Assembly (NCBI GenBank): GCA_041665465.1
Contig: JBAYIU010000001.1
Span: forward strand, 1,081,733 to 1,145,732
Reading direction: 5' to 3'
DNA: 64,000 nucleotides
From: Candidatus Woesearchaeota archaeon
GTDB lineage: Archaea > Nanobdellota > Nanobdellia > Woesearchaeales > GW2011-AR9
The translations under genes and the position numbers were made by a program. The notes beneath the pieces are model-generated. The model ran no database searches and was not told where the DNA came from. It saw only the letters and a program-made list of their open reading frames with translations. This document shows, one piece after another, positions 28,452 through 52,397 of the stretch; within the stretch, counting starts at the first letter, position 1; the number at the start of each line of letters is the position of its first letter.

Positions 28452-29531
28452 ATGAAACGAATCACTTTAGCTAGTTTATTGTTGGGAGCTGCTCTTAGTT
28501 TGGGCGGATGTCATGAAGATACTCCGCAAGAGCAGATTGCAGATAAATTATCTCGTTCTCCAAAAAGTTTTCTGTGTGCGGTAGAGGATCACGTTAATTC
28601 TACTGCTCCTGCATTGTCCGTGGCTTCAGTATTGCAAACCGTTCCGGTGCTTAGTCCCGTAGTTAAGAATGATCTTCCCAAGACTATTCCTTTTACTGCT
28701 AATAGTGCTCCTAGAAAACATCGCGCTAACCAAGTTAATGGTAACATATTAACTGTTTACTTTACTACTGATCATTCTAGCTTTAACTCAAACGATACTG
28801 CTGATTTGGAAACCTATCTTCAAAGTTTACCTAATGGAACCCATTTGTTGGTAGAAGGTTATGCTGATCGAAGAGGTACTGATGAACATAACGCCTTGCT
28901 TAGTCAGCAAAGAGCTCAAGCTGTATCTGATTACGCTAAGAGATTTAATCCTACTTTGGAAACTGAACTTTATTCTTTTGGTGAGGGTCATCCGGCAGTG
29001 GAAGGTAAAGGGTTCAAGACTTATCAAGCTAATCGTCGAGTTAGAATTATCCCTCAAAAAAGTGAAGGAGTGATCACTACTGGACTAAGTACTTTAAAAC
29101 CATCTGATTATTATCTATTAGACCGAACCGGCTCAATGAAGGATATTCAATGGAATAGAGTTTCTAAGTGGAATGAAGTTCAATCTTATCAATTTCCAAA
29201 AGGGGCTAGTCTTTACACTTTTACTACTAATAATGTAACTAAAGGATGCACTGGTGAAGATTTAAATCAACTTACTCCTGATGGAGAGACTCCTTTGTTT
29301 GTGTCTTTATACTCTTTGTTAGATGAGATGAAAGAAGGTAGATCTGTAACTGTGCTAACTGATGGGATTAACAATGTAGGAGATGTTAGTGATAAGGACA
29401 TTATAGAAAGAGCTAGAGCAAAAAAGATTACTCTTTCCTTTCTAGCTCTAGTCCCTTGTGATAAGGACAGATTAACTTATCTGGCGAAAGAAACCGGCGG
29501 AGATACTTACTTGCCGATTGAGAAAGAATAA
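28452..29531 (+). CDS. Lipoprotein with an OmpA-like (peptidoglycan-associated) domain and a von Willebrand factor A domain
   Basis: Lipobox LSLGGC. VEGYADRRGTDEHNALLSQQRAQAV is the OmpA-C signature. YYLLDRTGSM (MIDAS DxSGS) and VLTDGINN mark a vWA domain. Confidence 0.65.
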   Translation: MKRITLASLLLGAALSLGGCHEDTPQEQIADKLSRSPKSFLCAVEDHVNSTAPALSVASVLQTVPVLSPVVKNDLPKTIPFTANSAPRKHRANQVNGNILTVYFTTDHSSFNSNDTADLETYLQSLPNGTHLLVEGYADRRGTDEHNALLSQQRAQAVSDYAKRFNPTLETELYSFGEGHPAVEGKGFKTYQANRRVRIIPQKSEGVITTGLSTLKPSDYYLLDRTGSMKDIQWNRVSKWNEVQSYQFPKGASLYTFTTNNVTKGCTGEDLNQLTPDGETPLFVSLYSLLDEMKEGRSVTVLTDGINNVGDVSDKDIIERARAKKITLSFLALVPCDKDRLTYLAKETGGDTYLPIEKE

Positions 29532-29942: not shown

Positions 29943-31376
29943 ATGACTATTAAAGAAAAGTTTGAAGCGATAAGGGATTATCGCAGCAGTAAAAAAGTCC
30001 AGATTGATCGTTTCTTAGATCCAGCTTTGTTTCTCACTTTTACTAATGCTGCTAGTTTGTATGGGTTAGATACGGCTTTAAACTGGGTGGCAGAACATTC
30101 AGATAAGCATGAAGGATTGGCTATGCTGGGAACTTATGCTGTTCTTGGTACAGGAATATATGAATTAAATAAGCATGTTCTTATCCCGGTAGCGAAGAGA
30201 ATAAAGCAATATCATGAGATCCGTGCTTTAAGAGGAAAAGATGCTACTGTTCTTAGCTTTGGTAAATCTGGAGCTTCACTAGCAGCATTAGCTACTTTGT
30301 ACGTTGTAGCTGGATTTAATCTTACCCTTAATGATTTCTACTGGGATGGAGATAGAGTAATTGATGCTTTTGCTCGTCATAAAAAAGCAGAACAAACCAT
30401 TGAAGAGGCTCAAGCTATTGATGTTACTCCTTTATCCTTAGAAGAAAGAGTTACTCTTGTGAATGAAACCAATATTTTAGAGAATAAAACATCTCTTGCT
30501 TCCTCTTCTGAGATTAAAGTAGAAAGTCCAACCGAGATTGGTAATTCTAACAAATATTCTACTAAAGGACGTTATTTAAGAACTCATCGCTGGGATAAAA
30601 TAAACCGAGCGGTAGAACAAAAATATGGGATTGAAGAAGGTCTTCTCTCCGGATTACAGATGAGAGAGAGTTATGGTAATCCGTTAGAACTTAATTCTGG
30701 AGATGATGGTGGAGCAGGATTGATGATGTTCCAACCCGGAACGGCCAAAGTATATGGTCTTAAAGTTTATGATGATGCTGGAGCTACGGGAAGAGATCGT
30801 AATCATGGAAGAAAACTTATCAAGTTAGTTAAAGATAATAATTATGATTATGAAGCTCTTGCTTCTATTGATGAAAGATTTGATGTACTTAAGAGTGCAG
30901 ATGCAGCAGGCAGATATCTTAGAGAGTTGTATGATAAATATGGTTCATGGGACAGCGCTTTATCTGCTTATAATCGAGGAACTCCGGCAACTAATCCTAA
31001 ATCTACTCGCCATGTTAAAACTACTCGAGAATATCAGCGATATTATCTTGAACATAATTCTGCAGGGGGAGAAAAGGTTGATGAAACCGTTTTGACTCGT
31101 CTTCGGCAAGATAGATTACCGGAATATCGATTCGTTAGAACAAATGAATTGGGACAAGCGGTTTATATGTACCGTGTTGAAGCTGGAGATAATGCCACAG
31201 TTATCGCTGAAACCTTTAATCGTTGGGATGGGAAACATGGAAGCAGATATCAAGACGTTGATTATACTCATATCGTTAATAGAGATAGAAAATATGTGGG
31301 ACACAGATTACATCCTGAGCAGTATGTTTACGTTTTAGCTGAACCTCTAGCTAAATCTAAACTTAAGAAGAAATAG
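29943..31376 (+). CDS. Membrane-anchored lytic transglycosylase (SLT domain) with a C-terminal LysM-like module
   Basis: Two N-terminal TM segments. QMRESYGNP...GGAGLMMFQPGTA...AYNRG is the SLT family signature with the catalytic Glu. The C-terminus YRVEAGDNATVIAETFN is LysM-like. Confidence 0.65.
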   Translation: MTIKEKFEAIRDYRSSKKVQIDRFLDPALFLTFTNAASLYGLDTALNWVAEHSDKHEGLAMLGTYAVLGTGIYELNKHVLIPVAKRIKQYHEIRALRGKDATVLSFGKSGASLAALATLYVVAGFNLTLNDFYWDGDRVIDAFARHKKAEQTIEEAQAIDVTPLSLEERVTLVNETNILENKTSLASSSEIKVESPTEIGNSNKYSTKGRYLRTHRWDKINRAVEQKYGIEEGLLSGLQMRESYGNPLELNSGDDGGAGLMMFQPGTAKVYGLKVYDDAGATGRDRNHGRKLIKLVKDNNYDYEALASIDERFDVLKSADAAGRYLRELYDKYGSWDSALSAYNRGTPATNPKSTRHVKTTREYQRYYLEHNSAGGEKVDETVLTRLRQDRLPEYRFVRTNELGQAVYMYRVEAGDNATVIAETFNRWDGKHGSRYQDVDYTHIVNRDRKYVGHRLHPEQYVYVLAEPLAKSKLKKK

Positions 31377-37712: not shown

Positions 37713-37816
37713 CGCCGACACCCGGAATTTCACAGCAATTACTTGCTATTTGAACCGGGAATCCCAGAGGGATCAGTTTTCAAGACTGACGCAATACCGG
37801 GTTATGCGATGTCGGC
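37713..37816 (-). tRNA. tRNA-Ser (anticodon UGA) with a probable approximately 22-nt non-canonical intron in the T-arm
   Basis: Reverse strand reads GCCGACA-TC-GCA-TAACCCGGTAT-TGC-G-TCAGT-CTTGAAA-ACTGA-TCCCTCTGGGATT-CCCGG-TTCAAAT-[AGCAAGTAATTGCTGTGAAATT]-CCGGG-TGTCGGC-G. It has a 7-bp acceptor, a 3-bp D-stem (class II), anticodon loop CTTGAAA, a long variable arm, a canonical TTCAAAT T-loop and discriminator G. It is the only GC-rich segment in an AT-rich intergenic region. Confidence 0.55.
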
Positions 37817-41448: not shown

Positions 41449-42081
41449 TTAAAGTAAAGAATATTCTAATTCTTTTTGTAAGACCTTCTTAACTTCTTTC
41501 TCTGTAACTACAACCACATCTACTCCATTCCCAGAAGCGCTGTCTCGCTGAAGAGCAGTATTAACACATCTTACCGCTAACTTGACTCCTTCTGCTGCAG
41601 TCATATCTAACTTATACTGGGTTTCTAGTACACCTAAAGCGAAAACTGATCCTGATCCAGAAGAGACATAATCTCTAATTTTAGTTACGCTTCCGTCAGG
41701 GAATAAATCATAAAGGTATAATCCGCTATTATCTTTTCCACCTAATAAGAAATGAGCTATTCCTGGTAACATACTCATTTGACGAATGTTGGTGTAAAGT
41801 AATCCACCTAATAAGTTAGCCGCCTCTTTTACAGTAGGTTTCTTACTAGTACGAACTTCTTTTAGCTTTAATTCCGCTTTGATTAACTTGATTACGAGTT
41901 GGGCATCAGAAACATTTCCAGCGATGGTTACAGCCATTTCGTCAGAAATAATGTGCACTTTATCGGCTCTCTTGTCAACAATCATATTGCCGGCAGTGGC
42001 TCTTTTATCTGCTGCGAGGACAATTCCATCTTTGCAGACTAAACCTACAGTAGTAGTACCCGTTTTTAATTGTTCTTCCAT
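41449..42081 (-). CDS. psmB: Proteasome subunit beta
   Basis: TTTVGLVCKDGIVLAADKR, the Ntn-hydrolase mature N-terminus. Confidence 0.9.
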   Translation of the reverse strand: MEEQLKTGTTTVGLVCKDGIVLAADKRATAGNMIVDKRADKVHIISDEMAVTIAGNVSDAQLVIKLIKAELKLKEVRTSKKPTVKEAANLLGGLLYTNIRQMSMLPGIAHFLLGGKDNSGLYLYDLFPDGSVTKIRDYVSSGSGSVFALGVLETQYKLDMTAAEGVKLAVRCVNTALQRDSASGNGVDVVVVTEKEVKKVLQKELEYSLL

Positions 42082-42238
42082 ATTTTAAGCCCCACTAGAA
42101 TGATTTCACATCCATCCTTCTTTATTTTACCTCTAAAATGGTACAGATTTTTAAATGTTTCGCCAAATGAGGATACACAAGCTTTATATTCAAGTTATTG
42201 CTAAGGATTTTTATTAACATTAAAAGAGATGATTAACC

Positions 42239-42502
42239 ATGCTTGAAAAGCTGTTTGGTAAAGACAAATTTGAGAAGGATTCAGAGGTTATTAGTCTGGT
42301 TCAAGGTGTCCCGGATGGTTTTTTCCGTTGTAATTCTTGTAAAAAGGTTTATCCCACTACTAAATTTGGAAGTACAGTGTGGGCCGGTAAAGGAGTCGGA
42401 TATATGTGCAAGAATTGTTTTATGGGAGAGAAAAAACCAGACATTCCAGAAAGATTAAGAGCCAAACCGGGAGAAACACCTAGAAGTGTGAGGAGGTATT
42501 AA
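42239..42502 (+). CDS. Zinc-finger hypothetical protein
   Basis: CNSCKK...CKNC. 87 aa. Confidence 0.4.
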   Translation: MLEKLFGKDKFEKDSEVISLVQGVPDGFFRCNSCKKVYPTTKFGSTVWAGKGVGYMCKNCFMGEKKPDIPERLRAKPGETPRSVRRY

Positions 42503-42503
42503 A

Positions 42504-42734
42504 ATGGGAATATTTTCTGCTTTATTTGGACAGAGTGAGATGACTCCACTACGTAGATTAAATGAACGTGTTGAAAATTATGAGATGAAGATTGCGCATC
42601 TTAGAAGATTGATTAAAACTCATCCCACAAAGAAGGAGTTGTATGAAAGTCAGATTAAAGAATTGCAAGCAGAGATGGCTTATGTTAGGAGAGATAGAAG
42701 CAGAGTTATAGTCAAGAGTGAGAAGAAGAGATAA
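42504..42734 (+). CDS. Hypothetical small helical protein
   Basis: 76 aa, translationally adjacent to the previous ORF. Confidence 0.35.
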   Translation: MGIFSALFGQSEMTPLRRLNERVENYEMKIAHLRRLIKTHPTKKELYESQIKELQAEMAYVRRDRSRVIVKSEKKR

Positions 42735-42797
42735 GTTCACTATTTCTTAGTAATTATTTACACAACTATTATAAATAATTCTCTTTTTTGAATATTT

Positions 42798-43397
42798 ATG
42801 ACTAATCTCTCTTGGAAAGAATTTGAAAATTATCTCTCTCAAAGAGGTTTTGAACTAGCACATGTTCATGATCTTTGGGAGTATGATTTTCCACAAGATA
42901 TTTCTCCTAAAAAGACGGATGAATTTCAATTGTGGTGTAAGAAGGATGAAGGGTTAGTTATTTGTGCAGAAAGTTATGAGGGTCGCATTAATGATGCTCG
43001 CTTACACTTTGAATTAAGATTACCTGTTCCTTATGATCAATTAAATTCGACGCAGTATAAGGTTTATTCTGCTCTTGTTCATGGTAGGAATGGTGGTGGG
43101 CCGATTGGAGAATCGCGTACTCATCTGCTTGTAGCGCCACAATATGATCTTCTTAAGAGTTGGAGTCTGGATCTGGTTTGTGGTAATGTTCGAATGGCGA
43201 AAGGATTCTCTTTCAATGTTCCTTGGGAAGGAAGATTAAAAGATCATACTCTTAATTTGTGCGAAAGATTGTTAAACGATTCTGAAGGACAGTTTGGTGA
43301 TTTCTATCGGGCACATCAGTTCCTTAAATTAGTAGAATTGAGATTAGTTTCTACTCTTCCAGATGATGTTAAGAAGATGATTGGGTACGGAAGATAA
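42798..43397 (+). CDS. Hypothetical protein
   Basis: 199-aa ORF. Confidence 0.4.
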   Translation: MTNLSWKEFENYLSQRGFELAHVHDLWEYDFPQDISPKKTDEFQLWCKKDEGLVICAESYEGRINDARLHFELRLPVPYDQLNSTQYKVYSALVHGRNGGGPIGESRTHLLVAPQYDLLKSWSLDLVCGNVRMAKGFSFNVPWEGRLKDHTLNLCERLLNDSEGQFGDFYRAHQFLKLVELRLVSTLPDDVKKMIGYGR

Positions 43398-43443
43398 TTG
43401 AGAAGAGAAATACTTATAAATCTCTTCTCTTATCAGAATAATA

Positions 43444-43848
43444 ATGGATGACAACCAAAGATTAAAGCGTAATCTTCTAGGACTTAAGATTGTTACTGGC
43501 GCAATGGTTCTATTAGCGCTTGGAGCTGGTGCTGGAGCATTTTATCAAGCAATTCGTGTTGATGAGCAGGATAAACATTTAGATAAGATTTTAGCTTTAG
43601 AAAAGCAGTTTGAACCTTGTGCTAAGGAACATCAAGCGCTGGATGATAAACTTAATACACACGTTTCTGCTTTAACTGAAGCATTTGAAAAAGGATATAC
43701 TTCTGGTTCTGTTTTTAGTTATCATATTGGAAAGGTGGAAGAAGTTGCTCAGGGTTATTCTAAGTGGAGTTCTCAATGTAGAGGACTTCAACAACAAGCC
43801 CTTACCGCATTAGCAGAATATCGAAGAGAATTCCCTGAACAAAAATAA
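43444..43848 (+). CDS. Hypothetical membrane-anchored protein
   Basis: N-terminal TM (IVTGAMVLLALGAGAGAF) plus a coiled coil. Confidence 0.4.
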   Translation: MDDNQRLKRNLLGLKIVTGAMVLLALGAGAGAFYQAIRVDEQDKHLDKILALEKQFEPCAKEHQALDDKLNTHVSALTEAFEKGYTSGSVFSYHIGKVEEVAQGYSKWSSQCRGLQQQALTALAEYRREFPEQK

Positions 43849-43902
43849 TCTATATCTTCTAATAAATAAATCTATATAAACTGGTTTCTAACAACTGAAG
43901 TT

Positions 43903-44178
43903 ATGCCTGAAGACAAATTATATCTAGCCAAAGGAAGTAGATACGTTGAAAGTGATCCGGTCAGAGGGGAATCTGGAGGATGGAACTATAGTGATCGTTA
44001 TTTGGTTGTTGCTTTAAATCCTAATCAAGCGGGAAACGTATTCCTTTCTTACCTTAATAGTCGTGGAAGATCAAGAAGTTGGGAACTAGATCAAATAAAG
44101 GAATTAACTGCTGAGAAAGATGTTCCTCTTGAGAAAAGAATTGCTATTTTGGGCGAAGCTCTTCATGTGGTGAGATAA
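43903..44178 (+). CDS. Hypothetical protein
   Basis: 91-aa ORF. Confidence 0.35.
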   Translation: MPEDKLYLAKGSRYVESDPVRGESGGWNYSDRYLVVALNPNQAGNVFLSYLNSRGRSRSWELDQIKELTAEKDVPLEKRIAILGEALHVVR

Positions 44179-44201
44179 GTTATTAATTAAAGATAAAAAA
44201 C

Positions 44202-44287
44202 AGCCCCTGACGAGAATTGCACTCGCGACCTTCTGATGCCTTTTTAATAATACAAGTCAGACGCAATAGCTACTATGCTACAGGGGC
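44202..44287 (-). ncRNA. tRNA-like structured RNA (candidate intron-containing tRNA with non-canonical D and T loops)
   Basis: GC-rich island in an AT-rich spacer. A 7-bp terminal helix GCCCCTG/CAGGGGC encloses about 85 nt. The reverse strand folds as acceptor–GCA/TGC D-stem–TCTGA...TCAGA anticodon-like stem with an approximately 13-nt insertion–5-nt variable loop–GCGAG/CTCGT T-like stem. The T-loop (TGCAATT) and D-loop are non-canonical. Confidence 0.3.
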
Positions 44288-44322
44288 ATAGATTAAGAAA
44301 ATAAGACCTTAATTTATTAATC

Positions 44323-44937
44323 TTACTCTTTAAGATGCGAAGGCCAAGCATAAGATGTAAAGAAACCTTTAGTTTCTTCATACGGTAGATATCTCTTCAA
44401 CTTAAACCATTGCTTTATGAAATTCTGTAAAATATACACTTCTTGATACAACTCTTTCTTACGTTCTTCATACTCTTGACGATATACTCGGCGATTAAAT
44501 AGGTCTAAGATCTCTTTAAGGAAAGCGTTCTTTTCAAAATCTTTAACATAAGATTTTTCAATTTTGGCATCAACAAACAGTTCTAATTCTCCCTTGTTGA
44601 CTTTCATCTTTATTCCATCTTTGACTACCTCGGTAGTACTTAAACCTAAAGCATGAAAATTAAAATCTAAATAATAGTTAAATGGGCCACTTTCTGCTTT
44701 TTTGAACGGTCTCCATTGGATCCAAATCTCTTTGTTACCGTTACGGTCAATTCTTTCATAATAAAGATTTTCCCAGTGGTCTTCGGCTCCTTCATCTGGA
44801 TCGATCCAACTGTAATGTAATAGCCACTCATGCAACGCTCCATAGAACTCTTTAAAGTCAAACACATCTTTATACTTAACTCTGAACGGTTTGCCTAATA
44901 CTGACTCTGCATCTATCTTTTTTGAGGGCATACTCAA
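44323..44937 (-). CDS. Hypothetical protein
   Basis: 204-aa ORF rich in aromatic residues. Confidence 0.45.
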   Translation of the reverse strand: MSMPSKKIDAESVLGKPFRVKYKDVFDFKEFYGALHEWLLHYSWIDPDEGAEDHWENLYYERIDRNGNKEIWIQWRPFKKAESGPFNYYLDFNFHALGLSTTEVVKDGIKMKVNKGELELFVDAKIEKSYVKDFEKNAFLKEILDLFNRRVYRQEYEERKKELYQEVYILQNFIKQWFKLKRYLPYEETKGFFTSYAWPSHLKE

Positions 44938-51407: not shown

Positions 51408-52397
51408 TTATACTTCTAATTTTTTGTTCGATTCTCTTCTACCAAAAACTTTCATTCTCACGTCTGAGAATTCTTTTACTAAGTCATGACCTTCCCAACT
51501 ATTACGTAAAAGGGGATTGGGATTAAGGAAAGTTTCAAAATATTCTCTAATTGGTTGAGGTACATTCTTTGGGAATTTTTTAGCTAAAGGGTTTCCTCCA
51601 AAAGCGTACATCATAGTTAAGGCTAAAGAATAAAGATCAGTTGATGGAAGTGGTGGCCTTAACTCTACTAGTTCTGGGGCTGCAAATGCTTCGGTGTATC
51701 CTTCTGCTCTACTTTTATGTTTAGGTCTTAAACTGGCGAAACCATAATCTACTAATACGGCATTATGTTCCTCAGGTTTGATGATAATATTGTTTGGTTT
51801 GACATCGCAATGAATTACTCCATTAAAGTGCAAATAATGTAGAGCGTTTAGTAAACGTTGAGTTATCCATGATGCATGTTCTGGGTCAATCGGGCCATGT
51901 TCTCGCACAATCTTTTCTAATGTTGGTCCGGGAACATAGCTCATCGCAAAGATATAACTCCCATCATCGGCATGAAAAAAGTCTCTTAAAGTGGGTAAAG
52001 AATAATGATTGATGTTCCAAAGTAATTTTGCTTCATGAGCCATGATCAAAGAGTCATCAGGAGACACGTGCAAGTTTTGTTTCAAACAAGCAAGTTCTTC
52101 TAACAAAACATGTTTAGCTTTGTAAGTTACTCCAAACCCTCCTTCAGCAATCTTTTCTAAAACTTGATAATTTCCGATAACTCTCTCTTGAGGGAATATC
52201 TTTTGGTCATACTTTTTTCTTTTTTCTTCATCACACAATACTTCCCTAGCTTCATTCAATAACTTGGCAACGTTTTCATTGCCTAGTCCTTTGTCGGGAT
52301 GATATTTGGTCATTAAGACCCGATAGGCCGCTTCTATTACTCCTGTTCTTGCCCCCGGGCTAACTTCTAAAACATGATAATAGTTTGGGTTTGCCAT
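51408..52397 (-). CDS. J-domain (DnaJ N-terminal) fused to a Hanks-type Ser/Thr protein kinase
   Basis: YYHVLEVSPGARTGVIEAAYRVLMTKYHPDKG (HPD motif), then GGFGVTYKAKH (Gly loop), HCDVKPNNIII (catalytic loop), DYGFAS (DFG-like) and APE. Confidence 0.7.
   Translation of the reverse strand: MANPNYYHVLEVSPGARTGVIEAAYRVLMTKYHPDKGLGNENVAKLLNEAREVLCDEEKRKKYDQKIFPQERVIGNYQVLEKIAEGGFGVTYKAKHVLLEELACLKQNLHVSPDDSLIMAHEAKLLWNINHYSLPTLRDFFHADDGSYIFAMSYVPGPTLEKIVREHGPIDPEHASWITQRLLNALHYLHFNGVIHCDVKPNNIIIKPEEHNAVLVDYGFASLRPKHKSRAEGYTEAFAAPELVELRPPLPSTDLYSLALTMMYAFGGNPLAKKFPKNVPQPIREYFETFLNPNPLLRNSWEGHDLVKEFSDVRMKVFGRRESNKKLEV

Follow-up and report, generated by a model that had tools for sequence, protein, structure and literature searches.

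The window analysed here, a stretch of 64,000 nucleotides from a Candidatus Woesearchaeota archaeon, carries on its minus strand (44202-44287) what is very probably a functional, chromosomal gene for the elongator tRNA-Thr(UGU) of this DPANN organism. Judged from the sequence, only one tertiary pair of the elbow of this tRNA is altered, namely 18/55, where G18/U55 is replaced by A18/G55. The tRNA-Thr gene itself is ordinary, and the interest lies in the covariation of the elbow at a highly conserved tRNA contact. Indeed, G18 and U55 (as pseudouridine) are treated as universal in cytosolic tRNAs, and the elbow is read by many enzymes and RNAs.

The gene was identified with both ARAGORN and Rfam. 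With introns allowed, ARAGORN placed a tRNA-Thr(tgt), interrupted at 37/38 by an intron of 13 nt, precisely at c[44202,44287]. When the filters of Rfam were relaxed, its tRNA model RF00005 matched the locus with 54.4 bits, for a gathering score of 29, and covered model positions 1-71 of 71, the E-value being 3e-11 locally and 6e-9 over the whole window. In runs over the whole window, ARAGORN without introns delivered 0 genes and Rfam at the gathering threshold with its default filter 0 matches. Both misses are artefacts of the intron and of the filter, and are thus no evidence of absence. In archaea, and DPANN archaea especially, tRNA genes are often interrupted by short introns and then escape annotation under standard settings.

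A first-pass annotation made from the sequence alone had described a GC-rich, tRNA-like cloverleaf in a spacer between two genes, its leading reading being an intron-bearing tRNA-Thr with the anticodon UGU after splicing at 37/38. This reading is borne out by ARAGORN in intron mode, by the Rfam score and by about 100 homologous genes. The parts that it listed are all present, i.e. the closing helix GCCCCTG/CAGGGGC (7 bp, 44203-44209 and 44281-44287), the minus-strand D-stem GCA(U)/(U)UGC, the anticodon stem UCUGA/UCAGA, the 5-nt variable loop AGGUC, the T-stem GCGAG/CUCGU and the T-loop UGCAAUU. The segment of 86 nt has a GC content of about 48-52%, compared to 36% for the window, and lies within a 144-nt spacer with open reading frames (ORFs) at 43903-44178 (+) and 44323-44937 (-) on either side. 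The proposed comparison with Rfam covariance models, where a missing match was to count against the tRNA, gave a strong match. The segment is also conserved in related genomes, with 89.7% identity in the metagenome contig L033 and further homologues in L003 and others.

Compared to the RF00005 consensus for core and elbow, the window tRNA-Thr displays U8, A14, G19, A21, U33, G53, U54, C56, A58 and C61, the only exceptions being A for G18 and G for U55. The departure at 18/55 is a variant within the tRNA family and does not exclude the molecule from it. Threonine identity sets are located in the acceptor stem and the anticodon, with U73 in Haloferax volcanii (PMC9976931). At sequence level, the anticodon UGU, G1-C72, C2-G71, G35, U36 and U73 were all found in the window tRNA, and these elements fit a predicted charging by the threonyl-tRNA synthetase (ThrRS). 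No second tRNA-Thr(UGU) was detected within the 64-kb window.

Homologues were collected by scanning metagenome contigs with the D-arm pattern GTAGCATAGTNGCTANTGCG, which imposed nothing on position 18 or on the T-arm. At least 120 stretches were returned, and all family counts given here (112, 77, 52, 95 and 97) are among the matches listed. From these, 112 distinct full-length genes were parsed, and 77 distinct tRNA-Thr sequences of 73 nt, spliced or intron-less, were aligned in register without gaps. Acceptor, anticodon and T-stem pairs are all standard in 77/77, with many compensatory changes such as those of pair 50-64, seen as CG, UA, GC, AU and GU. The D-stem pair 13-22 is U-U in 70/77 sequences, and the known 13-22-46 triple covaries across the alignment, while pairs 10-25, 11-24 and 12-23 were set by the search pattern and are therefore not independent support. 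Invariant in all 77 sequences are U8, A14, G15, G19, A21, G26, U33, G35, U36, A37, A38, C48, C56, U60 and U73. The anticodons are UGU (43 sequences), GGU (18) and CGU (16). The compensated stems and the invariant bases identify the set as a predicted functional tRNA-Thr family and not as relics. Three further A18/G55 tRNA-Thr genes (L050, L095, L107) have the loop CUAGUAA, corresponding to the anticodon AGU, together with a well-formed, hairpin-containing intron at 37/38. An A34 is unusual in archaea, where the editing of A34 to inosine is generally lacking.

The noncanonical loops that had been noted at the outset (no GG in the D-loop and a T-loop reading UGCAAUU) are there as letters, and it is their numbering that had to be corrected. 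The D-loop AGUAGCUA had been taken in the first reading and in the Rfam alignment as lacking both G18 and G19, or as changed at position 19 ("C19"). These assignments are refuted by relatives, as the D-loops of L006, L012 and L091, which have the same length of 8 nt, read AGUGGCUA. The numbering is therefore A14 G15 U16 N18 G19 C20 U20a A21. The window sequence has A18 as the changed base, while G19 and C56 are kept.

Positions 18 and 55 are clearly coupled in the aligned family. The combination A18/G55 is present in 70 of the 77 sequences, C18/U55 in four, G18/U55 in two and C18/G55 in one, while A18/U55 occurs in 0 of 77. Thus, G55 accompanies A18 in 70/70 cases, and U55 is accompanied by G18 or C18 in 6/6 (Fisher p = 3e-8, a statistic that ignores relatedness). 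Genes with multiple introns or truncations, which were not parsed automatically, also have G55 wherever the T-arm is visible. The sequences that are not A18/G55 are nested among those that are: L077 (C18/U55) differs from L031 and L113 (both A18/G55) at just 2 other positions, compared to a median distance of 14 between A18/G55 sequences. Given this nesting and the near-identity of L077, relatedness does not explain the pattern, and the 18/55 state appears to have switched several times, each time in a coordinated manner.

The variant occurs in all three isoacceptors (UGU, CGU and GGU), two of which, the diverged A18/G55 genes L063 and L089, are located on a single contig of 859 kb. Across the 97 loci with an A18/G55 tRNA-Thr, all 27 other (non-Thr) tRNA genes that were detected have GG and UUCRA, and the tRNA-Ser(UGA) of the window is likewise canonical, with GG in its D-loop and UUCAAAU as its T-loop. 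On these contigs, the A18/G55 variant is specific for the tRNA-Thr isotype. Outside this family, G55 together with AG instead of GG in the D-loop was seen in two unrelated genes, a tRNA-Cys of L049 (c2606-2683) and a tRNA-Met of L118 (5981-6059). Their T-loops are UGCAAGU and UGCGAAU, respectively, CCA is encoded, and the contigs carry many other tRNA genes. These two cases suggest that A18/G55 is a generally available alternative which may recur outside archaeal tRNA-Thr. A minor T-loop, CGCACAU (C54, G55, C56, A57, C58), was found still in combination with A18 in L036, L048, L066, L078 and L104; here, the reverse-Hoogsteen pair 54-58 would turn from U-A to C-C, and an assignment to the CGNRA type is ruled out by C54 and C58. 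In the literature, the coverage of which was incomplete, neither an A18/G55 elbow nor an archaeal tRNA-Thr without U55 was found described. Reviews on T-loops and the elbow (PMC7912444, PMC4810234) do not mention A18/G55. The elbow variant is thus apparently undescribed so far, while an intron-containing archaeal tRNA is in itself routine.

A structural reading of the variant can be proposed by analogy. In the canonical elbow, G18 intercalates between positions 57 and 58 and forms a single hydrogen bond to pseudouridine 55 (Psi55), described as "universally conserved", while G19-C56 is the exposed outer pair (PMC4810234, PMC7912444). The T-loops of flavin mononucleotide (FMN) and cobalamin riboswitches follow the consensus (YGNRA)NY, with (UGHAA)UU being functionally best (bioRxiv 10.1101/2022.12.26.521914). 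Their intercalator is almost exclusively an adenosine placed between T-loop positions 4 and 5, from where two hydrogen bonds connect it with the sugar edge of the G at position 2; the tRNA-type UUCRA T-loop forms a separate class (bioRxiv 10.1101/2022.12.26.521914). The window T-loop UGCAAUU is an exact match to (UGHAA)UU, and UGC starts 68/71 of the G55 T-loops of the family. Position 59 is a pyrimidine in 62/71 G55 loops and A in 6/6 U55 loops, a pattern which echoes the bias of the riboswitch loops against A at loop position 6. In the D-loop, the slot that corresponds by homology to that of the intercalating G18 is filled by A18. This adenosine would most likely intercalate between A57 and A58 and contact G55, thereby preserving the L-shape. 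In our reading, this tRNA-Thr lineage would have swapped the tRNA-specific elbow solution for the generic T-loop solution and left the rest untouched. Since position 55 is a G, no Psi55 is possible on the A18/G55 tRNA-Thr. TrmY does not tolerate a mutation of U55 (PMC7912444), so that N1-methylpseudouridine 54 (m1Psi54) is probably absent as well.

The 13-nt intron of the window gene fits a relaxed form of the archaeal bulge-helix-bulge (BHB) motif, i.e. a bulge-helix-loop. Intron bases -3, -4 and -5 (G, A, A) pair with C32, U33 and U34, while -6 (A) is opposite G35. The 3' splice site is located inside a 3-nt bulge, G-C|A38 (intron -2, -1 and A38), and the 5' splice site, U36-A37|U, leads straight into the terminal loop. 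Measured against the canonical motif, with two 3-nt bulges, each cut after its second base, and a 4-bp helix between them, the window has the 3' bulge and 3 bp plus a G-A mismatch. This arrangement was compared with that of 52 relatives having a single intron at 37/38 (11-77 nt, mode 12). In 45/52 of them, intron bases -3 to -5 are paired with positions 32-34, and all of 32-35 are paired in 25/52, while any other register is paired in at most 8/52. When introns were permuted among genes in 1000 trials, 24.9 were paired on average and 35 at most, compared to the 45 observed. Base 34 covaries with intron -5 (U:A, G:C, C:G), and the pairing of 32-35 with the intron is hence assigned, from comparative evidence, as the central helix of the archaeal motif. 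The non-pair at 35/-6 is common to the window intron and 20 relatives. In the window, the bulge-helix-loop fold has an energy of -2.7 kcal/mol, at most 0.7 above the minimum free energy (MFE) of the arm, and it is the MFE fold in relatives with four pairs. Many homologues carry 2-3 introns at non-canonical sites (L022, L028, L046, L051, L055, L060, L074, L094, L101, L125 and others), located in or near the 5' strand of the anticodon stem, in the variable region or in the T-loop. In the helix of the T-loop intron of L125, UGCA (54-57, including G55) pairs with a downstream UGCA.

As the motif is relaxed, cleavage needs an endonuclease which tolerates relaxed motifs. No types of EndA other than (alpha-beta)2 and epsilon2 cleave non-canonical introns (PMC5829648), and an epsilon2 EndA was found in the DPANN lineage ARMAN (PMC3239211). 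As suggested by the motif, EndA would cut the intron out at 37/38 and an RNA ligase would seal the exons, giving a 73-nt tRNA with the anticodon loop CUUGUAA. CCA would be added post-transcriptionally, and the window codes for a CCA-adding enzyme of class I.

Expression signals were deduced from the homologue profiles. An A/T-rich box at a fixed distance (-36 to -27) from the mature 5' end emerges from the profile of 95 upstream regions of homologues, of which 77% have A at position -2, while position -1 is invariably occupied by a pyrimidine. In 97 homologues, T is enriched at +1 to +9 after the discriminator. The window sequence has A(-2) and U(-1) before G1 and, downstream of U73, a G followed by UUUUUU. 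The fixed spacing and the pyrimidine at -1 followed by a purine at +1 are consistent with a TATA box plus initiator pattern with little or no 5' leader, for which the leaderless tRNAs of Nanoarchaeum equitans are a parallel. Transcription would start at or near G1 from a TATA box about 30 nt upstream and would stop at the oligo-T run just past U73. A scan for bacterial promoters and terminators found nothing, as expected for an archaeon.

Several observations weigh against reading the locus as a functional, spliced tRNA-Thr gene with a rearranged elbow. The use of a D-arm pattern for the collection means that the homologue set samples one tRNA-Thr lineage, and the tRNA-Thr(UGU) genes of the Woesearchaeota L005, L006, L009 and L012 are canonical (G18/U55). 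The H helix of the window intron has just three Watson-Crick pairs and the mismatch, with no h' helix. A Pfam screen of 43 ORFs of the window, namely all those of 250 aa or more (33) plus ten near the tRNA-Thr gene, revealed no gene for EndA or a ligase. The proposed geometry of A18 is an analogy only. Folding of the single sequence, which had been suggested as a check, counts for little: the z-score of about -2.4 is a weak signal, uninformative when taken alone, and the MFE structure (-27.1 kcal/mol) is not the cloverleaf (-23.8 kcal/mol). For the structure of the tRNA-Thr, comparative evidence was preferred to single-sequence folding.

That the locus could be a degenerate tRNA had been considered in the first-pass annotation. 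A pseudogene or relic out of translational use might be suspected from the replacement of both near-universal bases, G18 and U55, from the silence of ARAGORN and Rfam in default mode, and from the imperfect intron helix. This is highly improbable, given the score of the locus against the tRNA model, the joint occurrence of the same two deviations in 70 distinct sequences with compensated stems and an invariant core, the conserved putative promoter box and terminator, the synteny with the neighbouring gene o204 across Woesearchaeota, and the lack of any other detected tRNA-Thr(UGU) in the window. A different small RNA had also been envisaged. A structured RNA, RAGATH-like or other, which would merely resemble a tRNA, has next to nothing in its favour. 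Weak overlapping Rfam matches do exist, the next-best family at the locus being RAGATH-21 (14.9 bits) and another being Bacteroides-1 (14.1 bits), but with E-values of 5-9 they are far under the thresholds of 70.3 and 43, respectively, while the tRNA model is matched over its full length. The proposal that the tRNA gene, or a copy of it, is the attachment (att) site of an integrated mobile element and marks an island boundary is very unlikely too. Compared to its closest relative L033, whose gene for the archaeal termination factor FttA encodes a product 93% identical, the window has an extra 1.44 kb between the gene o76 and the 3' end of the tRNA-Thr gene. About 20 nt separate the end of this segment from the tRNA, and copies of the 10-nt direct repeat GAGATAAGTT stand at both borders of the segment (42728-42737 and 44172-44181), the only ones in the window; moreover, tRNA-Thr and the proteasome gene are 0.18 to 4.8 kb apart, depending on the relative. 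A strain-specific insert therefore does lie next to the 3' end, as a check for an island boundary was meant to reveal, but its repeat is outside the tRNA. Neither tRNA half is duplicated in the window with up to 3 mismatches, no tRNA-derived repeats were detected in 41900-44400, and no match to an integrase, recombinase or other mobile-element protein was found for the flanking ORFs in Pfam, PHROG or NCBIfam. The tRNA-Thr gene is intact and orthologous to those of relatives. The difference of 1.44 kb could be an insertion with target duplication or, explaining the same pattern, a microhomology-mediated deletion in L033. Three orphan ORFs are located in the segment, at 42798-43397 (199 aa), 43444-43848 (134 aa) and 43903-44178 (91 aa), and none of them has a match in Pfam, PHROG or NCBIfam.

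A further question concerns the meaning of the variant in a tRNA-Thr gene that is taken as functional. A18/G55 could be an isotype-specific functional signal which is selected, rather than a neutral isosteric swap. It could then act as an identity element or antideterminant for ThrRS or an editing factor, exclude Psi55 and m1Psi54, or provide an escape from a factor or nuclease targeting tRNA-Thr. The isotype specificity favours such a signal, as the variant is limited to tRNA-Thr next to canonical co-resident tRNAs and extends to all three isoacceptors, including the diverged pair on a single contig. In addition, the intolerance of TrmY to changes at U55 (PMC7912444) implies that the T-loop modification pattern must differ. 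Neutrality is favoured by the frequent flips and by the location of the known threonine identity sets in the acceptor stem and anticodon, not in the elbow (PMC9976931). Near-identical tRNA-Thr bodies exist in both states, C18/U55 and A18/G55, and G18/U55 is retained in other Woesearchaeota, a picture that resembles drift between equivalent solutions. A partner protein for a signal was not identified. Overall, a selected signal is considered possible but rather unlikely. If A18/G55 were selected, the interior of the elbow would be an isotype-specific signal in a large DPANN group. To our knowledge, such a role of the elbow interior is not known for any cytosolic tRNA.

The gene content identifies the window as part of an archaeal chromosome, as it encodes aEF-2, aEF-1alpha, FttA/aCPSF1, a proteasome subunit and MutL, in addition to the archaeal class-I CCA-adding enzyme and a class-II aminoacyl-tRNA synthetase of D/K/N type. 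A search with FttA in species-representative genomes revealed 18 loci, most of them named Candidatus Woesearchaeota, with identities of 74-83% for the 12 closest. The metagenome contig L033 shows full synteny around the tRNA-Thr gene. In L003, L005, L006, L009 and L012, tRNA-Thr(UGU) genes are located near FttA and have introns at 37/38 of 13-54 nt. The gene o204 (44323-44937, -), coding for 204 aa, adjoins tRNA-Thr(UGU) in the window, L003, L005, L006, L009 and L033, and homologues with 26-87% identity are present on about two dozen metagenome loci bearing tRNA-Thr, including L092. This linkage is kept even where the tRNA is inverted, and with canonical as well as A18/G55 tRNAs. The o204 product gave no sequence match in Pfam, PHROG, NCBIfam or PDB. 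Elsewhere in the window, an OmpA-domain protein (28452-29531, +) and a protein with an SLT lytic-transglycosylase domain (29943-31376, +) are encoded, as well as a fusion of DnaJ and a protein kinase (51408-52397, -). The domains of the SLT and OmpA proteins are of a bacterial cell-envelope type and would be in keeping with an episymbiotic lifestyle of this DPANN archaeon. The second tRNA gene of the window, tRNA-Ser(UGA) at 37713-37816 (-), scored 43.9 bits in the Rfam run with lax filters and has a long variable arm. Its 22-nt intron is located in the T-loop and folds by hand as an hBHBh' motif at position 59/60. Neither ARAGORN, whether or not introns were allowed, nor Rfam with default settings detected this gene.

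Coordinates of the tRNA-Thr(UGU) gene, its parts and the adjacent features in the window
Feature	Coordinates	Strand	Basis
tRNA-Thr(UGU) gene, 86 nt including intron; mature 73 nt; CCA not encoded	44202..44287	-	ARAGORN, RF00005
5' exon, tRNA positions 1-37	44251..44287	-	sequence, ARAGORN, Rfam
Acceptor 5' strand	44281-44287	-	within 5' exon
D-arm	44263-44278	-	within 5' exon
D-loop A18 (44271) and G19 (44270)	44270..44271	-	comparison with G18 relatives having the same loop length
Anticodon stem 5' strand	44257-44261	-	within 5' exon
Anticodon UGU	44252-44254	-	within 5' exon
13-nt intron UUAUUAAAAAGGC, between positions 37 and 38	44238..44250	-	ARAGORN and pairing analysis
3' exon, positions 38-73	44202..44237	-	sequence, ARAGORN, Rfam
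Anticodon stem 3' strand	44232-44236	-	within 3' exon
Variable loop AGGUC	44227-44231	-	within 3' exon
T-arm	44210-44226	-	within 3' exon
T-loop UGCAAUU: U54 (44221), G55 (44220), C56 (44219), A57, A58, U59, U60	44215..44221	-	
Acceptor 3' strand	44203-44209	-	within 3' exon
Discriminator U73	44202	-	within 3' exon
TATA-like box TTAATAAA, -33 to -26 from mature 5' end, putative promoter	44313..44320	-	homologue profile
Oligo-T run UUUUUU, 1 nt past discriminator, putative terminator	44195..44200	-	homologue profile
1.44-kb segment absent from L033, outside tRNA	42728..44181	+	L033 comparison

A18/G55 represents a natural and repeatedly exchanged alternative in about a hundred tRNA-Thr genes whose neighbouring tRNAs are canonical. 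With this family, nature provides a clean test for which of the elbow contacts are truly needed, and the tRNA T-loop is linked to the generic UGNRA T-loop solution. It is predicted that the tRNA-Thr of these organisms has no Psi55 and probably no m1Psi54. A systematic blind spot is also flagged for the annotation and isotype models of DPANN tRNAs, as both tRNA genes of the window were missed by default tools.

With regard to splicing, the window gene resembles the archaeal genes with BHB introns, e.g. tRNA-Thr of Aeropyrum pernix (PMC3241643) and the ARMAN/DPANN pre-tRNAs cut by the epsilon2 EndA (PMC3239211, PMC5829648), in having a short intron at 37/38 and the 3' site in a 3-nt bulge. The helix between the anticodon loop and the 3' part of the intron, covarying across 52 relatives, is a further likeness, as are the lack of an encoded CCA, the archaeal host and the relatives with extra non-canonical introns. 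The window intron differs from the BHB type by its 3 bp with a G-A mismatch, the lack of h' and the position of the 5' site at the loop. With regard to the elbow, G19-C56, U54-A58, G53-C61, R57, Y60 and the 8-nt D-loop are kept as in the canonical tRNA, so that the outer face is unchanged, while the intercalator is A18 for G18 and its partner G55 for Psi55. The riboswitch T-loops share with the window the fit of UGCAAUU to (UGHAA)UU and an adenosine as the expected partner in the gap between positions 4 and 5. In contrast to them, the window loop belongs to a tRNA with the extra pair G19-C56, and its A-G contact is deduced by analogy. Finally, tRNA-Pyl and many mitochondrial tRNAs are likewise off the GG/T-Psi-C consensus and yet competent for translation, but they lose several elbow contacts or shrink their loops, whereas in the window tRNA-Thr one pair is exchanged and the loop sizes are standard.

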